Source of the DNA: a virus
Virus genome (UHGV): UHGV-0126275
DNA length: 43,021 bases
Strand: one strand, 5' to 3'
The position numbers and the translations under genes are program-made. Numbering within the stretch: position 1 is the first letter of the stretch; every line of letters begins with the position of its first letter. Shown here piece by piece: positions 3,315 to 41,007 of the stretch. The notes under the pieces were generated by a model that was not told the DNA's origin, did no database searches, and saw only the letters and a program-made list of their open reading frames with translations.

Positions 3315-4337
3315 TTACTCGAATTCTGGACGCATATCGTTAAGCGTCATCATGAATTTTTGGTGATATTCATCACCGAGCTTTTCAGCCATGGTGTTAA
3401 TCTCATTTTCAGCGCGCTTGAACATCGTTTTTGCATCTTCAGCAGATGGATCCAGGCTATTAAGTATCGCGATGATATATTCTCGAGCTTCTTCTCGTTC
3501 TGAATCTGAAATTGGCGACAGGTGTTGACGCTCATCGTCAACTACGGAATATTCACCAGTGATAACAGCTGCGTTATCTTGGCTAAGTCCAGCTTCAGCG
3601 CGCTCATCCATAACAACAGCCTTCTGCATTTCAATAGAAACAGGAAGATATTTGAATAGTCGGCGAATTACTGTTTTTTTAGCCATCTCATCGAAGTGAT
3701 CAACCCATGGGCCACTGCTACCGGCTTTGCTCAGTGCACGAACTTTCTCAATGTCTGCCCGGCTCATAACTTCAAATTGGACTCCGCCATCTTTCAGTCG
3801 TGCAACGGCGTAAACGTGCGTTAATTCTCCGCGGTCACCTGTTTCGCAAGGTAAATGCTCGAGCGTTTCTTCCAGGCCGTATGAGTAGCTGAATTTGTCG
3901 TTTGTATGTACGGTACGAGCCGAGATACTCAGGATCTGCCCAGAGCGGCGGGCAAGGTCAATCATTCCGCGATAGCCGATAATCAGCTGTGCTTCTGTAG
4001 ATACGGTTTCCCATCTTCCATTTACTTTCTGGCGTTTGTCGAACGGTATCAGGTAAGCGTGTCCAAGAGCTCCGCCTGGTTCAAGACCCAATTGGGCACA
4101 TTGCATAATTGCCCCCAGGAAGCTGGCTTGGTCGCATGATGCAAGTTTTGGAACCTTTCGGATCTCTGTGGTTGCTATGCGCGCCAGACGGTCTGCTGTC
4201 ATGTGCTTTGGAAGTGCCAAAGCCATCTGAGCTTTAATTTTTGGGTCTGCCAGAAGTCCGGCCAGAGTTGTTGGTTTCTCATTATGATGTGCAACTTGGT
4301 TACCGGTAGCCGCTGCCTTAAGTGCATTGATAGACAT
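3315..4337 (-). CDS. recT: RecT-family single-strand annealing recombinase
   Basis: 340-aa translation resembles RecT (central 'AYLIPFDKRQK...' region and acidic C-terminus); lies immediately downstream of a YqaJ-type exonuclease, the canonical pair. Confidence 0.8.
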   Translation of the reverse strand: MSINALKAAATGNQVAHHNEKPTTLAGLLADPKIKAQMALALPKHMTADRLARIATTEIRKVPKLASCDQASFLGAIMQCAQLGLEPGGALGHAYLIPFDKRQKVNGRWETVSTEAQLIIGYRGMIDLARRSGQILSISARTVHTNDKFSYSYGLEETLEHLPCETGDRGELTHVYAVARLKDGGVQFEVMSRADIEKVRALSKAGSSGPWVDHFDEMAKKTVIRRLFKYLPVSIEMQKAVVMDERAEAGLSQDNAAVITGEYSVVDDERQHLSPISDSEREEAREYIIAILNSLDPSAEDAKTMFKRAENEINTMAEKLGDEYHQKFMMTLNDMRPEFE

Positions 4338-4346
4338 TTTTTCTCC

Positions 4347-5225
4347 TTACTTCATTCTGAAGACGCGTTGTGTCGTTGTTGTTTTGAATTTTTCGAATAA
4401 CTCAGGGTGTACTGACTGGAATAGCTTCTGGTCGAATCTGTTGCTGATCTGAGATTTCCATGTGCAGAGCGGCTTTCCGTCCAGGGTCAGGACTGAGTGC
4501 TCTTGCATGTACATCTTCAGCTTCTCTTCTGATATAGCTATTTCTTCTTCCAGTGATTTTCTGCGTGACTTCATGTCTCGTAGATCGTTGAATAGTGCGA
4601 GTGCCTTTCCGTCAGCCTCGATACTTGTCCCTGCATCTTTCTCAAACATCAGCGATACATCGCTTACGCTGGTAGCTTCCGGCGGGTTAAGATTTTTCAC
4701 TCGGTCCCAGAAAGCGATTTCTTTTTCTAAGATCGCCTGGATAGTTTCTTCATCACGCTCAACCCGATAGATTCGGAAGTCGTCGCCACCGATAAGCACA
4801 CCGAAAACGCATACCTGTTTGTTTGTAACCATCAACCCGTGCATGGCCTGGGCCGTGTAATGCACAGGAATTGCATCTGTCTGGATTTCTCCCCATTCTT
4901 TGGCTTTGAACGGACTAACTGTTTTGATCTCAATGTTCTCGCCTGACGCTGCTTCTGCATCGATCTCAGCTGCAATAAAATCGTAATCACGGTGGATATA
5001 GCGGTTTCCGCGATGAACGATTTCCATCCCTGTTTCCTCAGAAAGCAGGTCTATTACGTATGGCTCCATACGCTGGCCACGCGTGAAAACTTTCTGCTTG
5101 CTTGGGTCTACTGGTTTGACACGTGGCTGGACCTTATCCAGATAAACCTCAAGCGGGGTGCGCCATGGGCTAATTCCAAGAATCCCTGCAACATCGCTTC
5201 CTCCGATGTATTTTGTTCTATCCAT
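4347..5225 (-). CDS. YqaJ-like (lambda-exonuclease fold) recombination exonuclease
   Basis: N-terminus 'MDRTKYIGGSDVAGILGISPWRTPLEVY' is the YqaJ signature; start taken at that Met. Confidence 0.8.
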   Translation of the reverse strand: MDRTKYIGGSDVAGILGISPWRTPLEVYLDKVQPRVKPVDPSKQKVFTRGQRMEPYVIDLLSEETGMEIVHRGNRYIHRDYDFIAAEIDAEAASGENIEIKTVSPFKAKEWGEIQTDAIPVHYTAQAMHGLMVTNKQVCVFGVLIGGDDFRIYRVERDEETIQAILEKEIAFWDRVKNLNPPEATSVSDVSLMFEKDAGTSIEADGKALALFNDLRDMKSRRKSLEEEIAISEEKLKMYMQEHSVLTLDGKPLCTWKSQISNRFDQKLFQSVHPELFEKFKTTTTQRVFRMK

Positions 5226-12580: not shown

Positions 12581-12911
12581 ATCAGCAGCAGAGCGCAAAG
12601 CCGCTCAGAGAGCCAGACAAGCTGCATCTGGTGTGCGTAAGCTGGAGATTGTGCTTGATGCTCAGGAAATTGAAATGCTGGAGCGTAACTGTGCCACACG
12701 TCGCCCCGGGCGTGCGCCTTACGAATTTGGTGAGTATATAGCATTACTGATCCGCCAGGATGATGCGCGCGTGCACGGGCGTATAAAATCGATCAGCAGA
12801 AAACGTTGCGGTAAGTGCGGCGAGAGAGTTCCTGTGAATTCATGCCCGTGTAATGGTGACTCGCAATGCTGGGTGACTAAAGGCTGGCATGAAACGAAAT
12901 TAATATTGTGA
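12570..12911 (+). CDS. Hypothetical protein with Cys-rich C-terminus
   Basis: 113 aa; 'CGKCGERVPVNSCPCNGDSQC'; stop codon lies inside the 12-bp palindrome. Confidence 0.45.
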   Translation: MMAKSAAERKAAQRARQAASGVRKLEIVLDAQEIEMLERNCATRRPGRAPYEFGEYIALLIRQDDARVHGRIKSISRKRCGKCGERVPVNSCPCNGDSQCWVTKGWHETKLIL

Positions 12912-12960
12912 CATGTCACGAGTGGGTTATGCATGATGAATTTGATGGGTTTTGAATACT

Positions 12961-15175: not shown

Positions 15176-15191
15176 GTGACATGTCACGGTG

Positions 15192-18164: not shown

Positions 18165-18457
18165 CAGATTACGAAGACGATCAACTGAAAGAAGAAAACG
18201 CCCGTAAGCAACGTGACATGGCACAGCGTGAAATTGATGACATTCGCTTTGTCATGAGCAGTGAACAGGGGCGTCGCGTTGTCTGGTCGGTGCTGGAGAA
18301 AGGCCGTGTGTTTTCCGCTATCTCACCGATGGATGCTATGGCAATGGCATTTAATGAGGGGCAACGCAATCTGGCGCTGGAATTGTTTCAGCGCGTTATG
18401 GCGCATTGCCCTGAACAGTATTTGAAGATGGCCAAAGAGGCCAGTGAACAGGAGTGA
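18161..18457 (+). CDS. Hypothetical head-module protein
   Basis: 98-aa ORF overlapping the portal stop by 4 bp. Confidence 0.5.
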   Translation: MTDYEDDQLKEENARKQRDMAQREIDDIRFVMSSEQGRRVVWSVLEKGRVFSAISPMDAMAMAFNEGQRNLALELFQRVMAHCPEQYLKMAKEASEQE

Positions 18458-29450: not shown

Positions 29451-31925
29451 ATGAGACAGGAATGTATACAAGCGGTTCAGCAGGCGGCGCAGCGCATGTT
29501 AACGGCGCGAGAAATACAGAACATTGAAGACCGCATTTATCGAAATATGCGCTCCATTGCTCGTGATGACCCTATGTCGTGGCGACAACTTTCCGAATCA
29601 GAGCGGCTATATCGAGCAGCACAATTGGCATCTGAAGAATTACAGCGAGAAGCGGCATTAAAGAAACGTCGTGTGGCTCTCACTATAGCCGCGCGTCAGA
29701 GATTGGATAAATTTATCAATAGCTATCAAGGGGCTGATGGGAAACTTGGCGCTCTTAACCGTACTATAGCTTTTAATGCAGACGGTAAATCTAATTTCCT
29801 CTCTGTTGAATCCAGAACAAAAGCCACCCGTGATTATGCATTGAGTCAATTGCAGGAGGCATTCGAAGCAGTTGATCCTCGCTTTTTTGGTCTGTTTGAA
29901 GATGAAGCGGGCGTACGTGACCTGGTATATGAAATGCGGGGGCAAAATACTGGCAATGCTAAAGCAAGAAACGGTGCTAAGGCGTGGAGAGAAGTTACAG
30001 AGCTGCTGCGCCGCCGGTTTAATGATGCTGGTGGGGACATTGGCTATCTCGAAAACTGGGGGATCCCTCAACATCATTCTATGGAAAAGGTTGGGGCAGT
30101 ATCAAAGGATAAGTGGGTTAGCGATGTTATAGGTAAGCTGGATCGCAAATATTATATCCGAGCCGATGGACAACTGATGAACGATGCCGAGTTGTCTTCA
30201 TTTCTTGGAGAGGCTTATAACACGATCGCTACTGGTGGGCTGAATAAGCTTACTGATACCGGAATGCGAATTTCCGGCGCACGTGCTAACCGTGGTAATG
30301 CATCACGACAGATACATTTCAAAGATGCAGATTCCTATCTGCAATATCAGCAACTTTATGGCGATCGCTCTCTATGGGAAATCATGGTCTGTCACCTGGA
30401 AGGTATCAGTAAAGATATTGCACTGGTGGAAACATATGGCCCAAACCCCGATCATGTTTTCCGCTCTCTTCTTGATCAGGTGAAGGCAGAAACGGCAACA
30501 GCTAACCCGAGTAAAACCGGTAAAGTCGAGCGGCTGGCGAACAACACAGAGAATCTGTACAACTTTATTTCCGGAAAGACACAGCCTGTAGCGAATCCGC
30601 ACATCGCGCGATGGTCTGACAATATCCGCAACTGGCTGGTTGCCAGCAGACTCGGATCCGCGTTGCTGTCATCGTTCTCTGATCTTGGAACCATGTATCT
30701 GTCTGCGAAGGTTACCAACCTTCCAATGAACCAGTTATTCCGCAACCAGCTTGAAGCTATGGACCCAACGAACCGTACAGAACTTGCGCGGGCGCGCCGC
30801 GCTGGTCTGGCGATGGAATCTCTACTTGGCAGCGTTAACCGCTGGGCGATGGATAATATGGGGCCGTCAGTGTCTCGTTGGGCGGCAACGGCGGTAATGC
30901 GTGCCAGTGGGCTTACAGCATGGTCAGATGCGCACAAGCGCGCCTATGGCGTAACCATGATGGGAAGCCTGGGAGAAGTAGTGTCACGGACACCAGACCT
31001 TCGTAGCCTCGATGACTCTGATTTTCGTATCCTGAAAAGCAAAGGGATTACTGACACAGACTGGAGCGTATGGAAGCTGGCGAAACAGGAGGACTGGGGG
31101 AACGGTAATAATACGATGCTGACACCGGAAAGCATTATGCGTATCCCTGATTCAGCAGTTAAACATCTTGGTGAGCCTGAACGCGTGAAATTTGAGGCAA
31201 TGCGTAAACTGCTCGGTGCCGTAACTGAAGAAGTTGATATGGCTGTTATTACACCGGGAGCACGTGAGCAACTGATAACCGGTTCTGGTATTCAGCGTGG
31301 AACATGGAAAGGTGAATTAACGAGAAGTGTTTTCCTGTTTAAATCGTTCCCTATCTCGGTTGTTATGCGTCACTGGTCACGCGCTATGGGTATGCCGTCT
31401 GCTGGTGGGCGTGCGGCATATATTGCGACGTTTATTGCCAGTACGACCATTCTTGGCGCTTTGTCGCAGCAACTTAACGACCTTGCGTCTGGTCGTAATC
31501 CTCGAGAGATGACAGGAGAAGATGCCGCAAAATTCTGGCTTGGTGCTCTACTGAAAGGTGGTGGTCTTGGCCTTTACGGTGACTTTTTATTGTCAGATCA
31601 CACTAGGTACGGAAGCGGCGCGCTGGCGTCGATGCTTGGCCCGGTAGCTGGTCTGGTTGATGACGTAGTGAAGATTGCTCAGGGCATACCGTTAAATGCT
31701 GTGGAAGGGAAGAGTGAGCAGACTGGTGGTGATCTGGTGAAGCTGGGGAAAGGTTTGATGCCTGGTGCGAATCTCTGGTACTTGAAGGCGGCTCTCGATC
31801 ACATGATCTTTAACCAGATGCAGGAGTATTTTTCACCAGGCTATTTGCGTAAAATGGAGCAACGTTCGAAGAAAGAGTTTAACCAGACATACTGGTGGCG
31901 ACCACAGGATGTCACTCCGCAATAA
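29451..31925 (+). CDS. Large internal core / ejection protein
   Basis: 824 aa, last of three consecutive large virion genes. Confidence 0.5.
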   Translation: MRQECIQAVQQAAQRMLTAREIQNIEDRIYRNMRSIARDDPMSWRQLSESERLYRAAQLASEELQREAALKKRRVALTIAARQRLDKFINSYQGADGKLGALNRTIAFNADGKSNFLSVESRTKATRDYALSQLQEAFEAVDPRFFGLFEDEAGVRDLVYEMRGQNTGNAKARNGAKAWREVTELLRRRFNDAGGDIGYLENWGIPQHHSMEKVGAVSKDKWVSDVIGKLDRKYYIRADGQLMNDAELSSFLGEAYNTIATGGLNKLTDTGMRISGARANRGNASRQIHFKDADSYLQYQQLYGDRSLWEIMVCHLEGISKDIALVETYGPNPDHVFRSLLDQVKAETATANPSKTGKVERLANNTENLYNFISGKTQPVANPHIARWSDNIRNWLVASRLGSALLSSFSDLGTMYLSAKVTNLPMNQLFRNQLEAMDPTNRTELARARRAGLAMESLLGSVNRWAMDNMGPSVSRWAATAVMRASGLTAWSDAHKRAYGVTMMGSLGEVVSRTPDLRSLDDSDFRILKSKGITDTDWSVWKLAKQEDWGNGNNTMLTPESIMRIPDSAVKHLGEPERVKFEAMRKLLGAVTEEVDMAVITPGAREQLITGSGIQRGTWKGELTRSVFLFKSFPISVVMRHWSRAMGMPSAGGRAAYIATFIASTTILGALSQQLNDLASGRNPREMTGEDAAKFWLGALLKGGGLGLYGDFLLSDHTRYGSGALASMLGPVAGLVDDVVKIAQGIPLNAVEGKSEQTGGDLVKLGKGLMPGANLWYLKAALDHMIFNQMQEYFSPGYLRKMEQRSKKEFNQTYWWRPQDVTPQ

Positions 31926-31933
31926 AAGGAGAT

Positions 31934-32059
31934 ATGATGGTTCAAATAACTTTTATTGTACTAATATGTGCAGCGTTTTTATGCTATTCATACATTTTGA
32001 TAAAAATGGGTTTCAATTGGAATCTCTGTTGCGTGCAGCGGCATGGTTCGGCTTTGTAG
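31934..32059 (+). CDS. Small hydrophobic protein (41 aa)
   Basis: Hand-translated: MMVQITFIVLICAAFLCYSYILIKMGFNWNLCCVQRHGSAL; strong AAGGAG RBS; not in the supplied track. Confidence 0.35.
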   Translation: MMVQITFIVLICAAFLCYSYILIKMGFNWNLCCVQRHGSAL

Positions 32060-32144
32060 TATTCGGAATTGTATTGTTCGGAAGAATAATAAAATAACTA
32101 GTTAATTTGTGGATTGGTGCTGTTTTTCCATGATAGGGGTAATT

Positions 32145-32525
32145 ATGAGAAAAGTATTTTTGATTTTTGGATTTATGCTTCTCGTTGGATGCCAGTCAGC
32201 TGCACAGTTTGAAAGAAATATGCTTACGTGGCGCGGGCAGAGTATAGACGCAATGGTTCAGCAGTGGGGGTATCCTCAGGGAGAGCTTACATCTCCAGAT
32301 GGAAACAGAGTGTATGTTTACTCAAGCTCTGGTAGTTATAACGTACCACAAACCACAACGTATAATACTACGTCTAATCTAATTGGTAATACTATATATT
32401 CAAACACATACGCAACAACTGATGGCGGTTATACACTCCATTTCAGTTGCTCTGTTTACGTTGAGTTTGGTGCTGATAAGATTATTAAAAATGTTACATG
32501 GCGCGGTAATAATTGCGTTGCGTGA
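32145..32525 (+). CDS. Lipoprotein (accessory/moron gene)
   Basis: Start at 'MRKVFLIFGFMLLVGCQSA' (lipobox LVGC); stop codon embedded in the 12-bp palindrome; terminator follows. Confidence 0.6.
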   Translation: MRKVFLIFGFMLLVGCQSAAQFERNMLTWRGQSIDAMVQQWGYPQGELTSPDGNRVYVYSSSGSYNVPQTTTYNTTSNLIGNTIYSNTYATTDGGYTLHFSCSVYVEFGADKIIKNVTWRGNNCVA

Positions 32526-32534
32526 CATGTCACA

Positions 32535-32558
32535 GGCCGCTTTCGCGGCCTTGTTTTT
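32535..32558 (+). terminator. Rho-independent terminator after the lipoprotein gene
   Basis: GGCCGC-TTTC-GCGGCC followed by TTGTTTTT. Confidence 0.7.
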
Positions 32559-32597
32559 AACGAATGCCACCGCCGCCCGGGCGGGAATCCGCAGACA

Positions 32598-32621
32598 CAA
32601 AAAAGCCCGCGGCGCGGGCTT
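32598..32621 (-). terminator. Rho-independent terminator after the 211-aa gene
   Basis: On the minus strand AGCCCGC-GCC-GCGGGCT followed by TTTTTT. Confidence 0.65.
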
Positions 32622-32627
32622 AAAGAA

Positions 32628-33263
32628 CTATTTTATTGGCAGCTTATGCTTTGAAATTATGGCCAATCTGTTTTGGAAGTTTTCCGCATCACCCCACAAC
32701 CAGGTTTCACCTTTCTCAAGTTCTTCCTCGTTATTCATCTCTATAAGTTCGCATGTCATCATGTCGTAACCATAGAGATGGAGGCCAAGTTCCAGTGCGT
32801 CATACATGCGAGCCTGCCAGAACGACATGCCTTCATGAGTCTGGTTGCGATCAGACACGATGATATCGTACCGTTCCAAGAGGTAGTTCATGAAGATGAT
32901 GCCAGCGAAATCATGAAGCACAGCACGATGCTTAGGCTTCTGGGTTCTCCATACCAATATCTGCGTGACAGGACGGCAGTTAAGATAGCTGTCAGGCTGG
33001 ATAATGACACGATTGTAATACACTACCTCTTCGGTGAGGTCATTTATCAATGACAGTTCAAAGTGCGCCTGTGGAATCTCGCCTTTCTTACGATCGTCTA
33101 CACGGACAACGCGGTATCCAGGAGCCAGAGAAACGCCTTTGACATCAGATGTGACATCGTTGCCGTTCACTAACTCTGAATACAGGGCGCGGTTGTCTGG
33201 AGTTTCGTTCAGATGAGCGAAAACCTCAGTTACCTTTGCCGGATTCAGCAGTTGTTGTGGCAT
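32628..33263 (-). CDS. Hypothetical protein (211 aa), stand-alone accessory gene
   Basis: ORF with GAGGTG RBS, own candidate promoter and terminator; no recognisable motif. Confidence 0.6.
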   Translation of the reverse strand: MPQQLLNPAKVTEVFAHLNETPDNRALYSELVNGNDVTSDVKGVSLAPGYRVVRVDDRKKGEIPQAHFELSLINDLTEEVVYYNRVIIQPDSYLNCRPVTQILVWRTQKPKHRAVLHDFAGIIFMNYLLERYDIIVSDRNQTHEGMSFWQARMYDALELGLHLYGYDMMTCELIEMNNEEELEKGETWLWGDAENFQNRLAIISKHKLPIK

Positions 33264-33303
33264 ACATCACCTCATAATATATAGATGCTTCTTTAAGCGG
33301 GAT

Positions 33304-33318
33304 TTACCATTAGGGTAA
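33304..33318. promoter_or_regulatory. TTACC-N5-GGTAA palindrome in the leader of the 211-aa gene
   Basis: TTACCattagGGTAA. Confidence 0.5.
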
Positions 33319-33462
33319 ATGAACTATCCGAATGTTAAACGCCTTCGTACTCGTCAAATTTTCTCATGTGGGCTCCTCCTGTATCGGTGCCTAATCGCTA
33401 TGGATCACCCGTGAGGTAATAGTACGCTATTCACCCACAGTCTGCAATCTGTACAGAATTAT

Positions 33463-33480
33463 TTAAAGGCACATCCCTGT
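33463..33480 (-). terminator. Terminator after the Bro-N gene
   Basis: On the minus strand GGCACA-GGGA-TGTGCC followed by TTTAAATAATT. Confidence 0.5.
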
Positions 33481-33491
33481 GCCGCCGCTCG

Positions 33492-34184
33492 TCAGAAGAA
33501 CCCTGCTTTGTCGTTGATATACTCCGCGTGGGTCTGGATATCACGCAGGCATTTGCTCACACCGACGATGTAGCAGAACATGGTGGTCAGCTCCGCCGCC
33601 GCGCCCGATACGTCGTGCCCGTCGTCCTGTAACTGGTTCAGCAGATTCATCAGCAGTGAGTTCTCCGTCAGGCCGAGAACACCAGACGGCGAGTGAATCA
33701 GGCTGCGGTAGCCGGGCTTCAGCGGGGCGCTGTAGGTTTTGTTCTCTATCTTCATTGCCTGCATTACTGCTGACGCCGTGGCGTTGGCTACCTGGTCGGC
33801 AACCATCTTTATGCGTTCTTCCTGCGGGAGCGAGTTTTTAATGTAACTTCCGGTGCGGCGGATCTGAGGAAGAACCTCACCTGTAACCCATTCAAGAAAT
33901 CTGAATGCTCTCGTTCCCTCAGTCATTGCCTCTTTGCAACGCAGAATAAGGATGTAGAGACCTGATTCTGAAACGATGGATAGTTCTTGTATTCCACCAG
34001 GGGTCTGTATTGAATACAGCCCCTTTTTGTTCCAGCCTTTTTTATCAAGTTTTCTCGCTTGTGTAACATCAATATTCAAAGCATTGCACACATCTTTGGT
34101 GACAAACCAAGGTTCTCCGTCAATCATGAACATACGGATCTGGCAGGATGACTCAAAGGAAAAGATGGAAGGTTTGGTATTCAT
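33492..34184 (-). CDS. Bro-N domain protein (antirepressor-like) with C-terminal domain paralogous to the small protein at 35331..35588
   Basis: Start at 'MNTKPSIFSFESSCQIRMFMIDGEPWFVTKDVCNALNI' (Bro-N signature); AAGGTG RBS. Confidence 0.7.
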   Translation of the reverse strand: MNTKPSIFSFESSCQIRMFMIDGEPWFVTKDVCNALNIDVTQARKLDKKGWNKKGLYSIQTPGGIQELSIVSESGLYILILRCKEAMTEGTRAFRFLEWVTGEVLPQIRRTGSYIKNSLPQEERIKMVADQVANATASAVMQAMKIENKTYSAPLKPGYRSLIHSPSGVLGLTENSLLMNLLNQLQDDGHDVSGAAAELTTMFCYIVGVSKCLRDIQTHAEYINDKAGFF

Positions 34185-34451
34185 AGCGATCACCTTTGTA
34201 GTTAGGTTAATCACCACCGCTGAGACCAATCAGATGGTGGTGAACTGTGCAGAGTTGGTCTTACCGGCTACAAAGGAACCCGGCGCACCTTTCGGTGCCC
34301 CCACACAGCCCACCATAGAATAGGTGCGCTTTACACATAAAAAAACCGCTTATGCGGCATATGTGCCTCTGTAGTAATCCGGGAGACCAATCCCGGCACT
34401 GGATTTTGCCAGTGCCCGATTACTATGGCACAAGAGGAGTGCGATGTAAAT

Positions 34452-34559
34452 TTACCGCAAAGGTAATGATAAACGCGAAGAAATATTAAAATCAACCGTA
34501 TTTGGTTGATTGCGTTTAACGCTTGATCACCTGAAAGCAAGATATTACCTTTAAGGTAA
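34452..34559. promoter_or_regulatory. Two TTACC-N5-GGTAA palindromes (34452..34466, 34545..34559) in the divergent region between the Bro-N gene and the zinc-ribbon gene
   Basis: TTACCgcaaaGGTAA and TTACCtttaaGGTAA. Confidence 0.5.
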
Positions 34560-34579
34560 TGTTATTGTGAGGAAAAGCA

Positions 34580-35308
34580 ATGGAAGTTTTCTGGATAGTT
34601 GTTGGTGTGGTTGCGGTGATTATTTACGTTATCAACCAGAACAAGACTAAGATCTCTGATCGTACGGTCGTTAATCATAACAAAACGATAAAGACCGAAG
34701 ATGGGGAGATAACGATTAATCGTACACAGGTGATAGAACACACCTCTACTCAGTTTCAAAAAACTGGAGGTAATGCGCCTAATATTTCCGCACCTCCTGC
34801 TTATGATAGTGCGGTAATCCAGACATATTATAAACAGCAGGAGTTAGCAAAAGAGAGGCAACTGATTCAGCCAAAGCCGTTTACAGCTGAGCTTCCACCT
34901 GGAGTGTCAACGCGTCCGGCATATCATGGAAGATTCCCTGGTGATGACATATCGTCTCAGTCATCTAAAAAAGCACCTCAGGCAGTATCAGAGCCAGCAA
35001 GAATACCTTCTGTATCGCCGCCAAAAGAAGAATCAGCTAACAGAGTTTCAAGTGGCCGCAAGCAGTGTTTGCGATGCAGAATAAACCTTCCATATGACAA
35101 ATTCCGGAAATCGTCAAAAAATCCAGATGGATTGACTAAGTGGTGTGCAAGGTGTCTCGATGGCCCAAAGAATACACGCCATATGAAGTGGTGCCCAATT
35201 TGTAATGTCCGCAGAAAACGGACCAGCTTTTACCCTAATAATCAAAATGCGGACGGCTTAATGGCATGGTGCAAAACGTGCTGGGACGAGCACAAAGCGA
35301 AACGATAG
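34580..35308 (+). CDS. Membrane-anchored protein with tandem C-terminal CxxC-x22-CxxC zinc ribbons
   Basis: N-terminal 'VFWIVVGVVAVIIYVI' TM helix; Pro/Ser-rich linker; 'CLRC...WCARC' and 'CPIC...WCKTC' repeats each containing 'DGL'. Confidence 0.65.
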   Translation: MEVFWIVVGVVAVIIYVINQNKTKISDRTVVNHNKTIKTEDGEITINRTQVIEHTSTQFQKTGGNAPNISAPPAYDSAVIQTYYKQQELAKERQLIQPKPFTAELPPGVSTRPAYHGRFPGDDISSQSSKKAPQAVSEPARIPSVSPPKEESANRVSSGRKQCLRCRINLPYDKFRKSSKNPDGLTKWCARCLDGPKNTRHMKWCPICNVRRKRTSFYPNNQNADGLMAWCKTCWDEHKAKR

Positions 35309-35324
35309 GCCGCTCTTGCGGCCT
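35308..35324. terminator. Hairpin between the convergent zinc-ribbon and antirepressor-like genes
   Basis: GGCCGC-TCTT-GCGGCC with weak T-run. Confidence 0.45.
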
Positions 35325-35330
35325 TTAAAT

Positions 35331-35588
35331 TTACCGGGTTTGTTTTCGTAATTGTTCGGCACAATAGTCGAGATGTGTTTGCAGATCCTGCATAGACATC
35401 TGTGAGCTGGTGACGTAGTTAATCAGTGCAGTCAGTTCGGCAAGTGGGCCATCGACATTAAATCCATCCTTATCGAGATCCCGGAGTAATTTCATCAAGT
35501 GCGATCCCTCCACCAGTGACCTGACGCCTCCCGGCGTGTGAATCCTTTCGGTAAATCCGTCTTCCAGTGGATAGTGATACTGCTGCAT
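35331..35588 (-). CDS. Small antirepressor-like protein (about 85 aa), LexA-box-controlled
   Basis: Start at 'MQQYHYP' (GGAGAAG RBS); homologous to the C-terminal domain of the Bro-N protein; LexA box 22 bp upstream. Confidence 0.6.
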   Translation of the reverse strand: MQQYHYPLEDGFTERIHTPGGVRSLVEGSHLMKLLRDLDKDGFNVDGPLAELTALINYVTSSQMSMQDLQTHLDYCAEQLRKQTR

Positions 35589-35609
35589 CTTATCTTCTCC
35601 ATGCAATAA

Positions 35610-35625
35610 CTGTATGTTTATACAG
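35610..35625. promoter_or_regulatory. LexA (SOS) box CTGT-N8-ACAG
   Basis: aaCTGTatgtttatACAGta; near-consensus with AT-rich spacer, just upstream of the small antirepressor-like gene. Confidence 0.7.
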
Positions 35626-35664
35626 TAACAAATAATTTGTTTGCTATCCAGCACGTTTTGCAAA

Positions 35665-35679
35665 TTACCCGAAAGGTAA
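35665..35679. promoter_or_regulatory. TTACC-N5-GGTAA palindrome upstream of the antirepressor-like gene
   Basis: aTTACCcgaaaGGTAAt. Confidence 0.5.
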
Positions 35680-35783
35680 TATCTATTGGTATTTATAGTC
35701 TTTTTATCCATATATGGTTTTTCAGGTAATAGAATAACCAGATATGCGGCGCAACGGGTGCTGCGACTATCTGGAGATTTAAC

Positions 35784-38700
35784 ATGACGGTCTCAACCGA
35801 AGTTGACCACAACGAATACACCGGTAACGGCGTTACGACATCGTTTCCGTATACTTTTCGAATTTTCAGAAAATCAGACCTGGTTGTTCAGGTGTCTGAT
35901 CTGAACGGAAACGTAACAGAATTGGTCCTGGATACCGGTTATACGGTAACTGGGGCGGGCACTTATAGTGGCGGTTCTGTGGTTCTTCCGTCTCCGCTTG
36001 CTACTGGATGGCGAATTACGATAGATCGTGTGCTTGATGTAGTGCAGGACACAGACCTTCGCAATCAGGGAAAATTTTTCCCCGAAGTGCATGAAGATGC
36101 CTTTGACTACCTGACGATGCTGATCCAGCAATGTTTTGGGTGGTTCAGACGTGCATTGATGAAACCATCTTTGCTTGCAAAATATTACGATGCAAAGCAA
36201 AACAAAATTTCTAACCTTGCAGATCCATCATTTGAGCAGGACGCTGTAAATAATCGCTCAATGCGTAATTATGTCGATGCTGCAATCGCCGGAGTTGTTG
36301 GTGGTTTTGGTTGGTTTATTCAGTATGGTTCTGGGGCTGTGTACCGAACGTTCCAGGATAAAATGCGTGATGCTATTAGCCCCAAAGATTTTGGAGCTGT
36401 TGGTGATGGTATAAATGACGATTCCACTGCAATAAGCGCGTGCCTTGAAGCCTCATCTCCAGGTTATAAAATTGACGGATTAGGGCTTACTTTTAAAGTA
36501 TCAACTCTTCCGGATGTCAGTCGATTTAAAAATGCTCGTTTTTTATTTGAGAGAATACCGGGCCAGCCTCTTTTTTATGCTTCTGAAGATTTTATCCAGG
36601 GAGAGTTATTTAAAATTACAGATACACCGTGGTACAACGCCTGGACGCAGGATAAAACGTTTGTATATGACAATGTCATCTATGCGCCTTTTATGGCTGG
36701 AGACCGCCATGGTGTAAATAACCTCCATGTTGCATGGGTTCGCTCAGGAGATGACGGGAAGACCTGGACAACGCCGGAATGGCTTACAGATTTACATGAA
36801 AACTATCCCACAGTTAACTATCACTGCATGAGTATGGGGGTTGTCAGAAATCGCCTTTTTGCTGTAATTGAGACGCGGACCGTGAGAGGAAATAAACTGC
36901 AGGTTGCAGAGTTGTGGGATCGCCCAATGAGTCGCAGCCTTCGCGTTTATGGTGGTATAACGAAAGCAGCAAATCAGCAAGTCGCTTATATTCGCATTAC
37001 TGATCACGGATTATTTGCTGGTGATTTTGTCAACTTCTCAAACTCTGGTGTTACAGGTGTTACCGGGAATATGACGGTGACTACTGTTATTGATAAAAAT
37101 ACCTTTACAGTTACGACGCAAAATACCCAGGATGTGGATCAGAATAACGAGGGTAGATACTGGAGTTTTGGCACATCATTTCACTCGTCACCATGGAGAA
37201 AAACCAGTCTTGGAACTATTCCTTCTTTTGTTGACGGAAGCACTCCTGTTACTGAGATTCACAGTTTTGCGACGATTAGCGATAACAGTTTTGCTGTTGG
37301 CTACCATAATGGTGATATTGGTCCACGCGAGCTTGGGATACTCTATTTCTCTGATGCTTTCGGTTCTCCTGGTAGCTTTGTTCGCAGACGCATACCTGTA
37401 GAATATGAGGCGAATGCATCTGAGCCATGTGTAAAATATTATGATGGCATTCTGTATCTGACGACCAGGGGGACATTAAGTACTCAACCCGGTAGTTCAT
37501 TGCACAGAAGCTCTGATTTAGGTACATCATGGAATTCTCTTCGCTTCCCAAATAATGTTCATCACTCAAACCTTCCTTTTGCCAAAGTTGGCGATGAGCT
37601 GATTATTTTTGGCAGTGAGCGCGCATTTGGTGAGTGGGAAGGAGGAGAACCTGATAACCGTTATGCAGGAAATTATCCAAGAACATTTATGACCAGAGTT
37701 AACGTCAATGAGTGGAGTCTGGATAATGTAGAGTGGGTTAATGTTACTGATCAGATTTATCAGGGCGGAATAGTTAACTCTGCGGTTGGTGTTGGTTCAG
37801 TTTGTATCAAAGACAACTGGCTGTACTACATTTTCGGTGGGGAAGACTTTCTAAACCCATGGAGCATAGGGGATAACAACAGAAAATATCCTTATGTTCA
37901 CGATGGTCACCCGGCTGATTTGTATTGTTTCAGGGTGAAAATTAAACAGGAAGAATTTGTTTCAAGGGATTTTGTCTACGGAGCCACTCCTAACAGAACG
38001 CTTCCTACTTTTATGTCGACGTCAGGCGTGAGGACGGTTCCTGTACCCGTTGATTTCACAGATGATGTTGCCGTCCAGTCACTGACTGTCCATGCAGGTA
38101 CATCAGGACAAGTTCGCGCGGAAGTCAAACTTGAGGGTAATTACGCCATTATTGCGAAGAAAGTACCGTCTGATGATGTTACCGCTCAGAGATTAATCGT
38201 TAGCGGCGGTGAAACAACGTCTTCAGCAGATGGTGCAATGATAACGTTGCATGGTTCCGGAAGCAGTACTCCACGTCGCGCGGTATATAACGCACTCGAA
38301 CATCTTTTTGAGAACGGAGATGTTAAACCTTATCTTGATAATGTAAATGCTCTTGGTGGTCCGGGAAACAGGTTCTCGACAGTTTATCTTGGCTCCAATC
38401 CTGTGGTTACCAGTGACGGAACATTAAAGACAGAGCCGGTCTCTCCTGACGAAGCATTGCTGGATGCCTGGGGTGACGTCAGGTATATCGCTTATAAATG
38501 GCTGAACGCTGTCGCTATAAAGGGGGAAGAAGGGGCGAGGATACATCATGGTGTAATCGCGCAGCAACTTCGTGATGTTCTTATTTCTCACGGACTCATG
38601 GAAGAAGAAAGCACAACATGCTGCTATGCCTTTCTTTGCTATGACGATTATCCCGCAGTATATGATGACGTCATTACTGGCCAAAGGGAAATGCCGCTGA

Positions 38701-38903
38701 CTGATAATGACGGGAGCATCATTGTTGATGAGGATGATAATCCAGTGATGGTAATAGAAGACATCATTGAGCGCGTTGAAATAACGCCAGCAGGATCTAG
38801 ATGGGGGGTCAGACCTGATCTCTTATTCTATATCGAGGCAGCATGGCAGCGCAGAGAAATGGATAAGATAAAAGAGCGGGTTCAGTCTCTGGAAGAACGT
38901 TAA
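35784..38903 (+). CDS. Tailspike / tail fibre: T7 gp17-like N-terminal adaptor domain, Asp-box (sialidase-like) central region, C-terminal intramolecular chaperone (peptidase S74-like) domain
   Basis: 1039 aa; Asp-box-like 'SGDDGKTW' and 'SSDLGTSW'; 'VVTSDGTLK' (Ser-x4-Lys dyad, Ser codon at about 38412) followed by 'GVIAQQLRDVL', as in endosialidase-type chaperone domains. Confidence 0.75.
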   Translation: MTVSTEVDHNEYTGNGVTTSFPYTFRIFRKSDLVVQVSDLNGNVTELVLDTGYTVTGAGTYSGGSVVLPSPLATGWRITIDRVLDVVQDTDLRNQGKFFPEVHEDAFDYLTMLIQQCFGWFRRALMKPSLLAKYYDAKQNKISNLADPSFEQDAVNNRSMRNYVDAAIAGVVGGFGWFIQYGSGAVYRTFQDKMRDAISPKDFGAVGDGINDDSTAISACLEASSPGYKIDGLGLTFKVSTLPDVSRFKNARFLFERIPGQPLFYASEDFIQGELFKITDTPWYNAWTQDKTFVYDNVIYAPFMAGDRHGVNNLHVAWVRSGDDGKTWTTPEWLTDLHENYPTVNYHCMSMGVVRNRLFAVIETRTVRGNKLQVAELWDRPMSRSLRVYGGITKAANQQVAYIRITDHGLFAGDFVNFSNSGVTGVTGNMTVTTVIDKNTFTVTTQNTQDVDQNNEGRYWSFGTSFHSSPWRKTSLGTIPSFVDGSTPVTEIHSFATISDNSFAVGYHNGDIGPRELGILYFSDAFGSPGSFVRRRIPVEYEANASEPCVKYYDGILYLTTRGTLSTQPGSSLHRSSDLGTSWNSLRFPNNVHHSNLPFAKVGDELIIFGSERAFGEWEGGEPDNRYAGNYPRTFMTRVNVNEWSLDNVEWVNVTDQIYQGGIVNSAVGVGSVCIKDNWLYYIFGGEDFLNPWSIGDNNRKYPYVHDGHPADLYCFRVKIKQEEFVSRDFVYGATPNRTLPTFMSTSGVRTVPVPVDFTDDVAVQSLTVHAGTSGQVRAEVKLEGNYAIIAKKVPSDDVTAQRLIVSGGETTSSADGAMITLHGSGSSTPRRAVYNALEHLFENGDVKPYLDNVNALGGPGNRFSTVYLGSNPVVTSDGTLKTEPVSPDEALLDAWGDVRYIAYKWLNAVAIKGEEGARIHHGVIAQQLRDVLISHGLMEEESTTCCYAFLCYDDYPAVYDDVITGQREMPLTDNDGSIIVDEDDNPVMVIEDIIERVEITPAGSRWGVRPDLLFYIEAAWQRREMDKIKERVQSLEER

Positions 38904-39909: not shown

Positions 39910-40528
39910 ACAATTCCAGCGAGCTGCTGGTATCAGCGAGGCACTGGCCGCACGCTGGTTCTCGCATATAACTTCTGCGATGAAAGAGTTTGGTATCAGC
40001 AAAGCAGAAGATCAGGCAATGTTTATTGCTCAAGCCGGGCATGAGTCTGGGGGCTTCACCAGGTTGCAGGAGAATTTCAACTACAGTGTCAGCGGACTGG
40101 CTAACTTCGTTCGGGCTGGGCGTCTCACTCAGGGGCAGGCTAATGCACTGGGGCGCCGTGCTGGTGAACCACCATTGCCACTTGAGCGCCAGCGCGCGAT
40201 CGCAAATCTGGTATACAGCAAACGCATGGGGAACAATGCCCCTGGTGATGGCTGGAATTACCGAGGGCGCGGACTTATCCAGATTACCGGTTTGAATAAC
40301 TATCGTGATTGCGGAAACGGTCTGAAGGTTGACCTGCTGGAGAGCCCTGAACTGCTGGCGCAGGACGAATATGCGGCTCGTAGCGCGGCGTGGTTCTTCG
40401 CCAGCAAAGGATGCATGAAGTATACCGGCGATATTGCACGTGTAACTCTGATTATCAATGGTGGCCGGAACGGCATCGACGACCGGCGAGCGCGGTACAT
40501 CACTGCCAGTAAGGTGCTGGCGGTATGA
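39899..40528 (+). CDS. Endolysin, glycoside hydrolase family 19 (chitinase-like lysozyme)
   Basis: Start at '[12 protein letters not shown]' with GAGG RBS; '[12 protein letters not shown]...[12 protein letters not shown]' matches the GH19 endolysin signature. Confidence 0.8.
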
Positions 40529-41007
40529 TCTGGGCATTCGTAAAAGCATACTGGAAACAGTTTCTTATCGTGGCAGTGCTTGCTGTTCTGGTCATATCAG
40601 GAGTGGTTGCCTGGAATATACACGGCAGTCGCCAGTACGATGCCGGGTATGCTCAGGCGGAAGAAGACCGCAAAGCCGAAGAAGACAAAGTTCGTCAGTA
40701 CTACGAACAGGAGAAAGTGACCAATGAACGTGAAGCTCAGCAGAGGATCGACCAGGCGCGCAATGATGCTCTTGATGCTGCCGCTAGCGCTGGCCGGTTG
40801 CAGCAACAACTCTTTGCCATCCGTGAGCAGCTCAGGCAGTATAACGCCATTGTCGGCGCTGGGTCGTCAGCCGCAGACACCGGAGTTTTGCTTGCCGACG
40901 TGCTCAGCAAATCTCTCGAGAGAAACAGACAACTGGCAGAGTATGCTGACCGGGCAGCCGAAGCCGGAAGAGTCTGCGAAAAACAGTACGACACTTTGAC
41001 CAGATAG
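40525..41007 (+). CDS. i-spanin (Rz-like)
   Basis: N-terminal TM helix, coiled-coil periplasmic domain, follows the endolysin. Confidence 0.7.
40724..40999 (+). CDS. o-spanin (Rz1-like) lipoprotein, embedded in a different frame within the i-spanin gene
   Basis: 'LALAGCS' lipobox; Pro/Ser-rich mature region; entirely nested in the Rz-like ORF. Confidence 0.65.
   Translation: MNVKLSRGSTRRAMMLLMLPLALAGCSNNSLPSVSSSGSITPLSALGRQPQTPEFCLPTCSANLSRETDNWQSMLTGQPKPEESAKNSTTL

Follow-up and report, generated by a model that had tools for sequence, protein, structure and literature searches.

What lies between the last core virion gene of a temperate phage and the accessory island behind it, and what could so small an insertion do? 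This question is raised by positions 31,934 to 32,558 of the virus genome UHGV-0126275, of which the whole stretch of 43,021 nucleotides was analysed and is called the window in the following. Here, an 824-aa core gene is followed by an open reading frame (ORF) of 41 codons with a hydrophobic product, by the gene of a 126-aa lipoprotein and by a terminator. The original prediction, made from the letters of the window, regarded peptide and lipoprotein as a pair of the kind that, in prophages, often serves exclusion or modification of the envelope. Our analysis favours, with moderate confidence, another reading, in which the segment is the 'gp18 slot' of a prophage related to epsilon15 and phiV10, occupied by a broken small gene and by an intact lipoprotein gene whose product probably interferes at the cell envelope with the delivery of phage DNA.

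A variable slot behind the ejection-protein genes

The segment 31850-32650 matches records of the genus Uetakevirus (the epsilon15/phiV10 group). It is 99.9% identical to the Escherichia phages vB_EcoP_ZX5 (hereafter ZX5) and Phi05_1387 B, whereas in the other members of the genus only its flanks match. The gene order common to annotated Uetakevirus records runs from the homologs of gp15, gp16 and gp17 through a short variable segment to a terminator, beyond which minus-strand accessory genes (a Bro-N/Ant anti-repressor and others) precede the tailspike gene. In the window, the gp17-like gene is the 824-aa gene of the ORF list (29451-31925, plus strand), and the cassette begins directly past its stop codon. 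Its product matches the virion structural protein family phrog_684 (E=0), and phiV10 p20 is the same gene; epsilon15 gp17 has been placed in the IVP-D type of T7 (internal virion protein D), i.e. it is an ejection protein (PMC4819975). The gp15 homolog of the window bears an injection-transglycosylase signature. Judged by sequence similarity and gene order, the window contains an epsilon15/phiV10-like Uetakevirus prophage whose ejection-protein operon (the homologs of gp15, gp16 and gp17) ends on its 3′ side in a variable 'gp18 slot', and the region corresponds to this slot.

Different cargo occupies this slot in other phages of the genus, and the slot is closed off by a conserved palindrome and a terminator. 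The cassette of the window is AT-rich, with a GC content of 37.8% as compared with 49.4% for the gp17 gene, and it is present in 34 of approximately 316 E. coli genomes (about 11%) that carry a prophage of this gp17 type. The 34 copies, counted over 5,426 complete E. coli genomes, each have at least 99.5% nucleotide identity, and their carriers include the extraintestinal pathogens APEC O1, CE10 and IAI39. The segment is accessory cargo between the last ejection or virion gene and the terminator, as was anticipated by the original prediction, which had seen an insertion between the last core gene and the accessory island. Two further elements that it had pointed out are also present in the sequence, namely an AAGGAG ribosome-binding site directly after the 824-aa gene (31926-31931) and a terminator after the lipoprotein gene. 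The latter is an intrinsic terminator on the plus strand (32534-32558) that ends the ejection-protein operon; its hairpin (32534-32551), with the stem AGGCCGC / GCGGCCT, is followed by a T-run, and a terminator is annotated at the equivalent place in phiV10 and epsilon15. On the minus strand, the terminator of the convergent accessory gene at 32628-33263 (32603-32621) marks the start of the neighbouring island. A promoter scan of the cassette gave promoter-like matches no higher than background.

The 3′ edge of the variable slot is formed by the perfect 12-bp palindrome GTGACATGTCAC (32522-32533), which overlaps the stop codon of the lipoprotein gene. Exact copies occur three times in the window (12908-12919, 15176-15187 and 32522-32533), as compared with 0.08 expected by chance, and a fourth copy with one mismatch is found at 18213-18224. 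Every exact copy is located at a module boundary beside a terminator-like hairpin, and two of the three overlap a stop codon. The palindrome is also present at the same junction in epsilon15, phiV10 and phiv142-3, and in the Klebsiella, Salmonella and P0006-type loci. Either a dimeric regulator could bind to it, or it could mark a hot spot at which modules are exchanged; a literature search recovered no paper containing its sequence.

The lipoprotein and its possible action at the envelope

The lipoprotein gene (32145-32525, plus strand) runs from the ATG at 32145 to the TGA at 32523-32525 and is preceded by the Shine-Dalgarno sequence AGGGG (32135-32139). The N-terminus of its 126-aa product, MRKVFLIFGFMLLVGC, is a signal peptide (MRK-VFLIFGFML-LVGC) that ends in the lipobox LVGC and agrees with the pattern for bacterial (Lgt/Lsp) lipoproteins, [LVI][ASTVI][GAS]C, so that this gene had been read correctly from the start. 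The lipobox cysteine, Cys16 (codon 32190-32192), does not vary among 26 close and 30 diverse homologs, and the residue behind it (position +2) is Gln in the window and Gln or Ala in the homologs. In E. coli, the Lol avoidance rule holds that lipoproteins whose +2 residue is not Asp are sorted to the outer membrane, and we infer from the +2 Gln that the lipoprotein would reach this membrane. Besides Cys16, the family keeps invariant Cys102, Cys124 and the motifs WGYP, G-N-x-V-Y-x-Y (GN.VY.Y) and C-terminal GNNC. Cys102 and Cys124 probably form a periplasmic disulfide that locks the mature domain. For this domain of 110 aa, a BamE/OsmE/BLIP-like fold of the alpha-alpha-beta-beta-beta type is predicted, with a mean pLDDT of 85 for the structure model. 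The gene is under purifying selection (synonymous divergence pS 0.70-0.88, non-synonymous divergence pN 0.15-0.35); it is intact and selectively maintained.

The lipoprotein is a member of PHROG 3716, a family annotated as of 'unknown function', and has no match in Pfam, NCBIfam or PADLOC. Likewise, the core domain of 30 diverse family members matched no curated Pfam or NCBIfam model, the family profile gave only marginal matches to Protein Data Bank (PDB) sequences, and a search of BFVD returned one uncharacterised viral match together with weak SmpA/OmlA-domain phage proteins. Close homologs, with 35-99% identity, were found in E. coli, Shigella, Salmonella, Klebsiella, Enterobacter, Raoultella and Citrobacter; one Salmonella homolog sequence is present on 593 contigs and one Klebsiella member sequence on 876. 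A profile search recovered 3,694 cluster representatives, 1,073 of them at E<=1e-10; most are lipoproteins with a length of 110-150 aa, and some have added C-terminal domains. One member with 46% identity is located in a non-phage chromosomal context. The predicted fold is shared with BamE (SmpA/OmlA, PF04355), OsmE and BLIP-like proteins, but the lipoprotein does not match the corresponding Pfam/NCBIfam profile. It differs from these proteins by extra beta-hairpins in its mature domain, by its phage-borne location and by the family-specific combination of the invariant Cys pair with the WGYP, GN.VY.Y and GNNC motifs.

In all enterobacterial loci that we examined, the lipoprotein gene comes after the gp17-like gene. 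The gap between the two is 9-10 nt in Salmonella and in P0006-type (Shigella/E. coli) loci and 142 nt in one Klebsiella prophage, and family members of only 48-57% identity, metagenomic lineages included, have no gap or an ATGA overlap with gp17. As the start of the lipoprotein gene abuts or overlaps the gp17 stop in these relatives, the lipoprotein would probably be made together with the late ejection-protein operon. The frequent coupling to gp17, taken with the lack of a promoter above background, also points to an expression that is probably late. A Burkholderia epsilon15-like phage has a 28%-identical homolog that adjoins its gp17 gene in convergent orientation, and only four phage records match the lipoprotein.

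The space between the two genes can itself vary. In the Klebsiella phage ST11-OXA245phi3.2 (L007), the 142-nt gap is AT-rich and lacks a plus-strand small ORF; a 39-aa hydrophobic ORF on its minus strand (L007 3852-3971) could have arisen by chance in T-rich sequence. In Raoultella and one other lineage, a third type of slot occupant, an unrelated membrane protein of 99-109 aa with a charged C-terminal tail, is encoded between gp17 and the lipoprotein (L011 4675-5004, L016 4705-5004), with an ATGA overlap on either side.

The lipoprotein co-occurs with unrelated types of tailspike (GDSL lipase, P22-tail, NAGPA and, in the window, endosialidase), and the primary surface receptor is therefore not its target. 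Its gene is located 3.3 kb upstream of the tailspike gene of the window, a position beside entry and tail genes such as exclusion lipoproteins have. By analogy with T5 Llp, Cor, mEpimmI Lpp, Ltp and P22 SieA, the lipoprotein probably binds a periplasmic or outer-membrane partner. This partner could be either a host envelope component that is needed to form the conduit or the arriving ejection proteins. The delivery of DNA by related phages would thereby be blocked, whether into the infected or lysogenic cell or into cell debris, and the effect would be superinfection exclusion or protection of the progeny. Late expression, as the gene arrangement suggests it, would probably fit a role in sparing the infected cell and the progeny from wasted ejection.

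Lipoproteins encoded in phage structural clusters have been reported to exclude the cognate phages (PMC11893012). T5 Llp, Cor (of phi80, N15 and HK022) and mEpimmI Lpp have in common with the lipoprotein of the window that they are small, phage-encoded, provided with a lipobox and sorted to the outer membrane; they are also encoded within or beside virion, tail or entry genes and have disulfide-containing globular domains (PMC11893012). T5 Llp is reported to bind the receptor from the periplasmic side. However, the lipoprotein studied here has no sequence similarity to the annotated exclusion families, and its predicted fold is BamE/BLIP-like. It is also independent of the tailspike type, in a phage that has capsule or O-antigen as its primary receptor.

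Ejection is the step addressed by P22 SieA, which blocks the ejection-protein conduit (PMC10883804), and by Ltp of a Streptococcus phage, which is reported to act on the injection apparatus or tape measure (PMC3952083). SieA and Ltp are both envelope proteins directed against ejection proteins or the tape measure and not against the primary receptor (PMC10883804; PMC3952083), and the cassette of the window resembles them by its genetic linkage to ejection-protein genes. The likeness does not extend to the proteins as such. SieA is a polytopic inner-membrane protein that is expressed from the prophage, and the lipoprotein is unlike it in sequence and in fold; Ltp, a lipoprotein of the Gram-positive cell surface, contains helix-turn-helix-like repeats and shares neither sequence nor fold with the lipoprotein.

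Rz1-type o-spanins are also phage lipoproteins of the outer membrane, but the lipoprotein is globular, twice as long and not encoded within an i-spanin gene. We rejected an o-spanin role, given that the gene lies outside the lysis cassette, 8 kb from the window's own spanin pair (Rz at 40525-41007, with the embedded Rz1, lipobox LAGC, at 40724-40999), and that its product has a globular domain of 110 aa. A virion-associated role is unlikely, because a Sec/lipobox signal exports the protein from the cytoplasm, where virions assemble, as is established for lipoprotein biogenesis.

Several points weigh against this reading of the cassette. No annotation ties the lipoprotein family to exclusion, neither in PHROG 3716 nor through Pfam, NCBIfam or PADLOC, and a literature search found no paper linking Uetakevirus with a lipoprotein. 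As no promoter above background was found that could serve expression in the lysogen, exclusion of the classical, prophage-expressed type remains unproven. Relatives of the family run into the thousands, and some at least occur in non-phage chromosomal contexts, so that a general envelope function is possible, and the BamE/BLIP-like fold is a generic protein-binding scaffold that specifies no partner. Concerning the small gene, the truncated peptide of 40-41 aa may keep some residual function.

Taken by itself, the earlier idea of envelope-modifying or exclusion cargo stays the most plausible one for the lipoprotein, although it did not survive for the peptide or for the two as a pair. The lipoprotein, so far uncharacterised, is phage cargo of an unsurprising kind, an envelope lipoprotein that by analogy with known systems is likely engaged in exclusion. 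If it does block DNA delivery, it would add an exclusion factor of the outer membrane, acting at the ejection stage, for widespread temperate podoviruses that infect E. coli, Salmonella, Klebsiella and Shigella, with consequences for phage-therapy host range and for the resistance of prophage-bearing clinical strains. It would also open a first way to the function of a large family of lipoproteins that is absent from curated databases. A bolder proposal, which we put forward very tentatively and consider unlikely as it stands, is that with the lipoprotein there begins a new class of periplasmic inhibitors, BLIP-like and anchored in the outer membrane, of the trans-envelope DNA-delivery conduit of epsilon15-like podoviruses, maybe by binding the virion transglycosylase gp15, or gp16/gp17, on their emergence. 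The lipoprotein would then be the outer-membrane counterpart of P22 SieA and T4 Spackle, and its uncurated bacterial relatives (about 3,700 clusters) would represent a general family of envelope protein inhibitors.

The lipoprotein could instead benefit the bacterium, as a factor of lysogenic conversion or host fitness in the style of lambda Bor/Iss or of OsmE/BamE, strengthening or modifying the outer membrane, for instance towards serum or stress resistance, and having no anti-phage role. Its fold belongs to a class common to BamE and OsmE, its large family has at least one chromosomal, non-phage member, the carriers of the cassette include the extraintestinal pathogens mentioned above, and the low GC content is moron-like. 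However, the gene keeps to one fixed position, often translationally coupled to a late ejection gene and lacking a detectable promoter of its own. The lipoprotein is moreover conserved in prophages whose hosts differ greatly in lifestyle, and its distant Burkholderia homolog has been kept beside gp17. We therefore regard a host-fitness role as improbable, though it deserves to be kept in mind.

A function in the phage's own lytic cycle, such as the timing of lysis, disruption of the outer membrane or protection of the envelope until release, without any exclusion of other phages, would agree with the probable co-expression with late genes and with the predicted periplasmic or outer-membrane location. 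Yet the window already encodes a full lysis cassette, with two holins and an endolysin as well as Rz and, embedded in it, an Rz1 that has its own lipobox. Furthermore, most sequenced phages of the genus have no such lipoprotein, to judge from the four phage records and the 34 of 316 E. coli prophages, and the lytic cycle can therefore do without it; this makes the proposal decidedly doubtful.

The small gene and its lost reading frame

The 41-codon ORF (frame A; 31934-32059, plus strand) begins with tandem ATGs at 31934 and 31937 and ends with TAG at 32057-32059. The Shine-Dalgarno sequence AAGGAG (31926-31931, plus strand) lies 5 nt before the second ATG and 2 nt before the first, and the product, of 41 codons or 40 from the better-spaced second ATG, has one hydrophobic segment. 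The open frame, its Shine-Dalgarno sequence and its transmembrane-like character thus agree with the original prediction; what has to be abandoned is the notion of a stand-alone gene, since the ORF is part of a frameshifted gene of 54 codons. The -1 frame (frame B) is open from 31909 to 32097 and encodes another hydrophobic helix of equal quality, ESLLRAAAWFGFVVFGIVLFGRIIK. When a hypothetical fusion of the two frames served as the query, two intact homologs were recovered, P0038 (54 aa) and P0039 (52 aa), each of them a single ORF; they agree with frame A in '..FIV.I..AFLCYSY' and with frame B in 'FDK.GF.LE..RAAAWFGFVVFG.VL.GR'. In a DNA alignment with intact genes, the window has a 1-nt gap in a run of four T (31995-31998, plus strand), and addition of one T at this site restores an ORF of 54 codons (53 from ATG 31937), MMVQITFIVLICAAFLCYSYIFDKNGFQLESLLRAAAWFGFVVFGIVLFGRIIK. 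The repaired protein matches P0038 over 52 residues without a gap, with a score of 191 vs 79 and 126 for the separate frames, and is homologous to P0038 and P0039 over both helices, with 68-73% identity. Codons 1 to about 21 of frame A represent the true N-terminal part of the ancestral gene, with its first transmembrane helix, and the last 20 codons (LIKMGFNWNLCCVQRHGSAL) are out-of-frame sequence of the 54-codon gene. The 3′ part of that gene is found in frame B (31999-32097, plus strand), where it encodes FDKNGFQLESLLRAAAWFGFVVFGIVLFGRIIK with the second transmembrane helix and ends with TAA at 32095-32097.

Both halves of the repaired frame have pS values of 0.8-1.0 and a pN of 0.18 between lineages, synonymous change being saturated, and the frame B portion (31999-32097) has a pS of 0.80 and a pN of 0.18. 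The frame A tail of the 41-aa ORF, compared with L018, has no coding signature (pS 0.18, pN 0.27). At 32023, the only polymorphism of the segment (T>C) causes no replacement in frame A and turns Ser into Pro in frame B; by itself it is uninformative.

In Klebsiella prophages and in E. coli phage phiv142-3, intact homologs of 53-57 aa are encoded at the equivalent position behind the gp17-like gene, and in four further contigs an intact small gene is found 8 nt past gp17. On Klebsiella contigs the intact gene occurs by the hundreds, in several variants. The 57-aa protein of phiv142-3 (44% identity with P0038, E=2e-10) is a true homolog of the ancestral small gene of the window. The uninterrupted frame of 52-57 codons that characterizes this slot family (P0038 / phiv142-3 type) is absent from the window copy, and the frameshift is common to every copy of the window allele, in 34 E. 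coli genomes, two phages and 11 IMG/VR viral contigs. A sequencing error could be ruled out as its cause, because the 34 genomes are independent and complete. An intact allele of the window lineage was found neither in IMG/VR nor in representative genomes, and the Klebsiella-type intact gene was not found in complete E. coli genomes. A tblastn search of phages with the fused small protein recovered just the two identical phages, in two separate pieces, and neither the small protein nor its fused or repaired versions had a match in Pfam, NCBIfam or PADLOC.

The repair, the alignment, the pattern of selection and the distribution of the alleles therefore indicate that the 41-codon ORF is a remnant, made up of the first helix and 20 nonsense residues. 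It is the front part of a 54-codon gene for two transmembrane helices that was broken by a 1-nt deletion, and the small gene has most likely become a pseudogene, with a truncated remnant as the best case. The ancestral product was a 54-aa hairpin of two transmembrane helices, of the inner-membrane type. Phage ZX5, which carries the frameshift, is viable, which shows only that the small gene is dispensable.

The genes epsilon15 gp18 and phiV10 p21 have the same position as the small gene of the window, after gp17 and before the palindrome and terminator, and their products, of 64 and 46 aa, respectively, have the same two-helix hairpin in a size class of 46-64 aa. However, phiV10 p21 has no detectable homology to the window gene (hhalign probability 7%), epsilon15 gp18 shows no obvious similarity to it in alignment, and neither of them is frameshifted. 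By this comparison of sequences, both are analogues by position only.

One related allele has taken a further step. In the metagenome scaffold L020 from ENA (4001-4135), the same 1-nt deletion is accompanied by a 26-nt deletion upstream that restores the frame, giving a 44-aa product whose first helix is shortened; behind it comes the same lipoprotein. This double deletion may be a compensatory event or a coincidence.

One could ask whether the ribosome might bypass the deletion by a -1 frameshift, so that some near-native 54-aa two-helix protein is made and the small gene remains functional. The heptamer G_GGT_TTC (32008-32014, plus strand) has the X_XXY_YYZ pattern in the phase of frame A, it is followed after 5 nt by a hairpin, and the product of a slip would differ from the repaired protein at only about four residues; in L020, the regained frame hints at a pressure to keep the C-terminal half. 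However, an in-phase heptamer is expected by chance in 7-8% of cases, and the downstream hairpin is no better than that of shuffled sequence (z = -1.3, with 24 of 200 shuffles folding equally well). GGG TTT merely codes for a conserved Gly-Phe of the ancestral frame, the homologous site of the intact homologs, AAA GGA TTC, is not slippery, no shift being needed there, and one in three random deletions would restore the frame as in L020. The heptamer is probably fortuitous, and a functional bypass seems very unlikely to us.

The two genes of the cassette do not assort as a pair. The small gene occurs without the lipoprotein in L018, L019, L036 and L037, as do its slot equivalents in phiV10 and epsilon15, and the converse is also found. 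As each module can be found without the other, they are two independent modules, and the functional pair suggested by the original prediction is not borne out. That the 41-aa peptide is nevertheless a genuine toxin-like or exclusion protein acting with the lipoprotein, as its strong Shine-Dalgarno sequence, its open frame with one hydrophobic helix and the identical arrangement in 34 genomes might suggest, is hardly credible for a frameshifted copy of a 54-codon gene whose tail lacks a coding signature, whose modules separate in relatives, whose uniformity among the 34 genomes (at least 99.5% nucleotide identity) reflects recent spread and not selection, and which has no match to an Rfam antisense or toxin-antitoxin RNA or in PADLOC. 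The Rfam scan, covering 31500-33000, gave no match except a chance, sub-threshold Trp_leader, and with respect to type I toxin-antitoxin systems we found neither an antisense RNA family nor a Pfam or PADLOC toxin match. This case calls for some caution, as short hydrophobic ORFs beside cargo genes can be remnants, which the inspection of neighbouring frames and distant homologs resolves.

Neighbouring genes and related records

The tailspike gene of the window (35784-38903, plus strand) encodes a complete endosialidase with End_N_terminal, End_beta_propel, End_beta_barrel and End_tail_spike domains and a Peptidase_S74 chaperone; its N-terminal part matches tail-fibre and tail-protein families of PHROG. 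The prophage is therefore a K1-capsule-specific temperate Uetakevirus, and this specificity fits its carriage by the K1 strains APEC O1, CE10 and IAI39.

The accessory island between the cassette and the tailspike (32628-35711) varies between otherwise near-identical prophages. In the window, it encodes a 211-aa protein of the unknown-function family phrog_1349 (32628-33263, minus strand), an anti-repressor of the Bro-N/Ant type (33492-34229, minus strand), a 242-aa protein whose N-terminal part includes a hydrophobic segment and whose C-terminal zinc-ribbon repeats are reminiscent of endonuclease VII and Lar-like proteins (34580-35308, plus strand), and a 126-aa protein that matches only the C-terminal module of anti-repressors (35331-35711, minus strand).

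In the record of phiv142-3 (L003), the 57-aa two-helix gene directly past gp17 (4086-4259) has been left unannotated. A polytopic membrane protein encoded behind it, at about 4274-4569, is annotated from an upstream TTG, and an internal ATG with a better context looks the likelier start.

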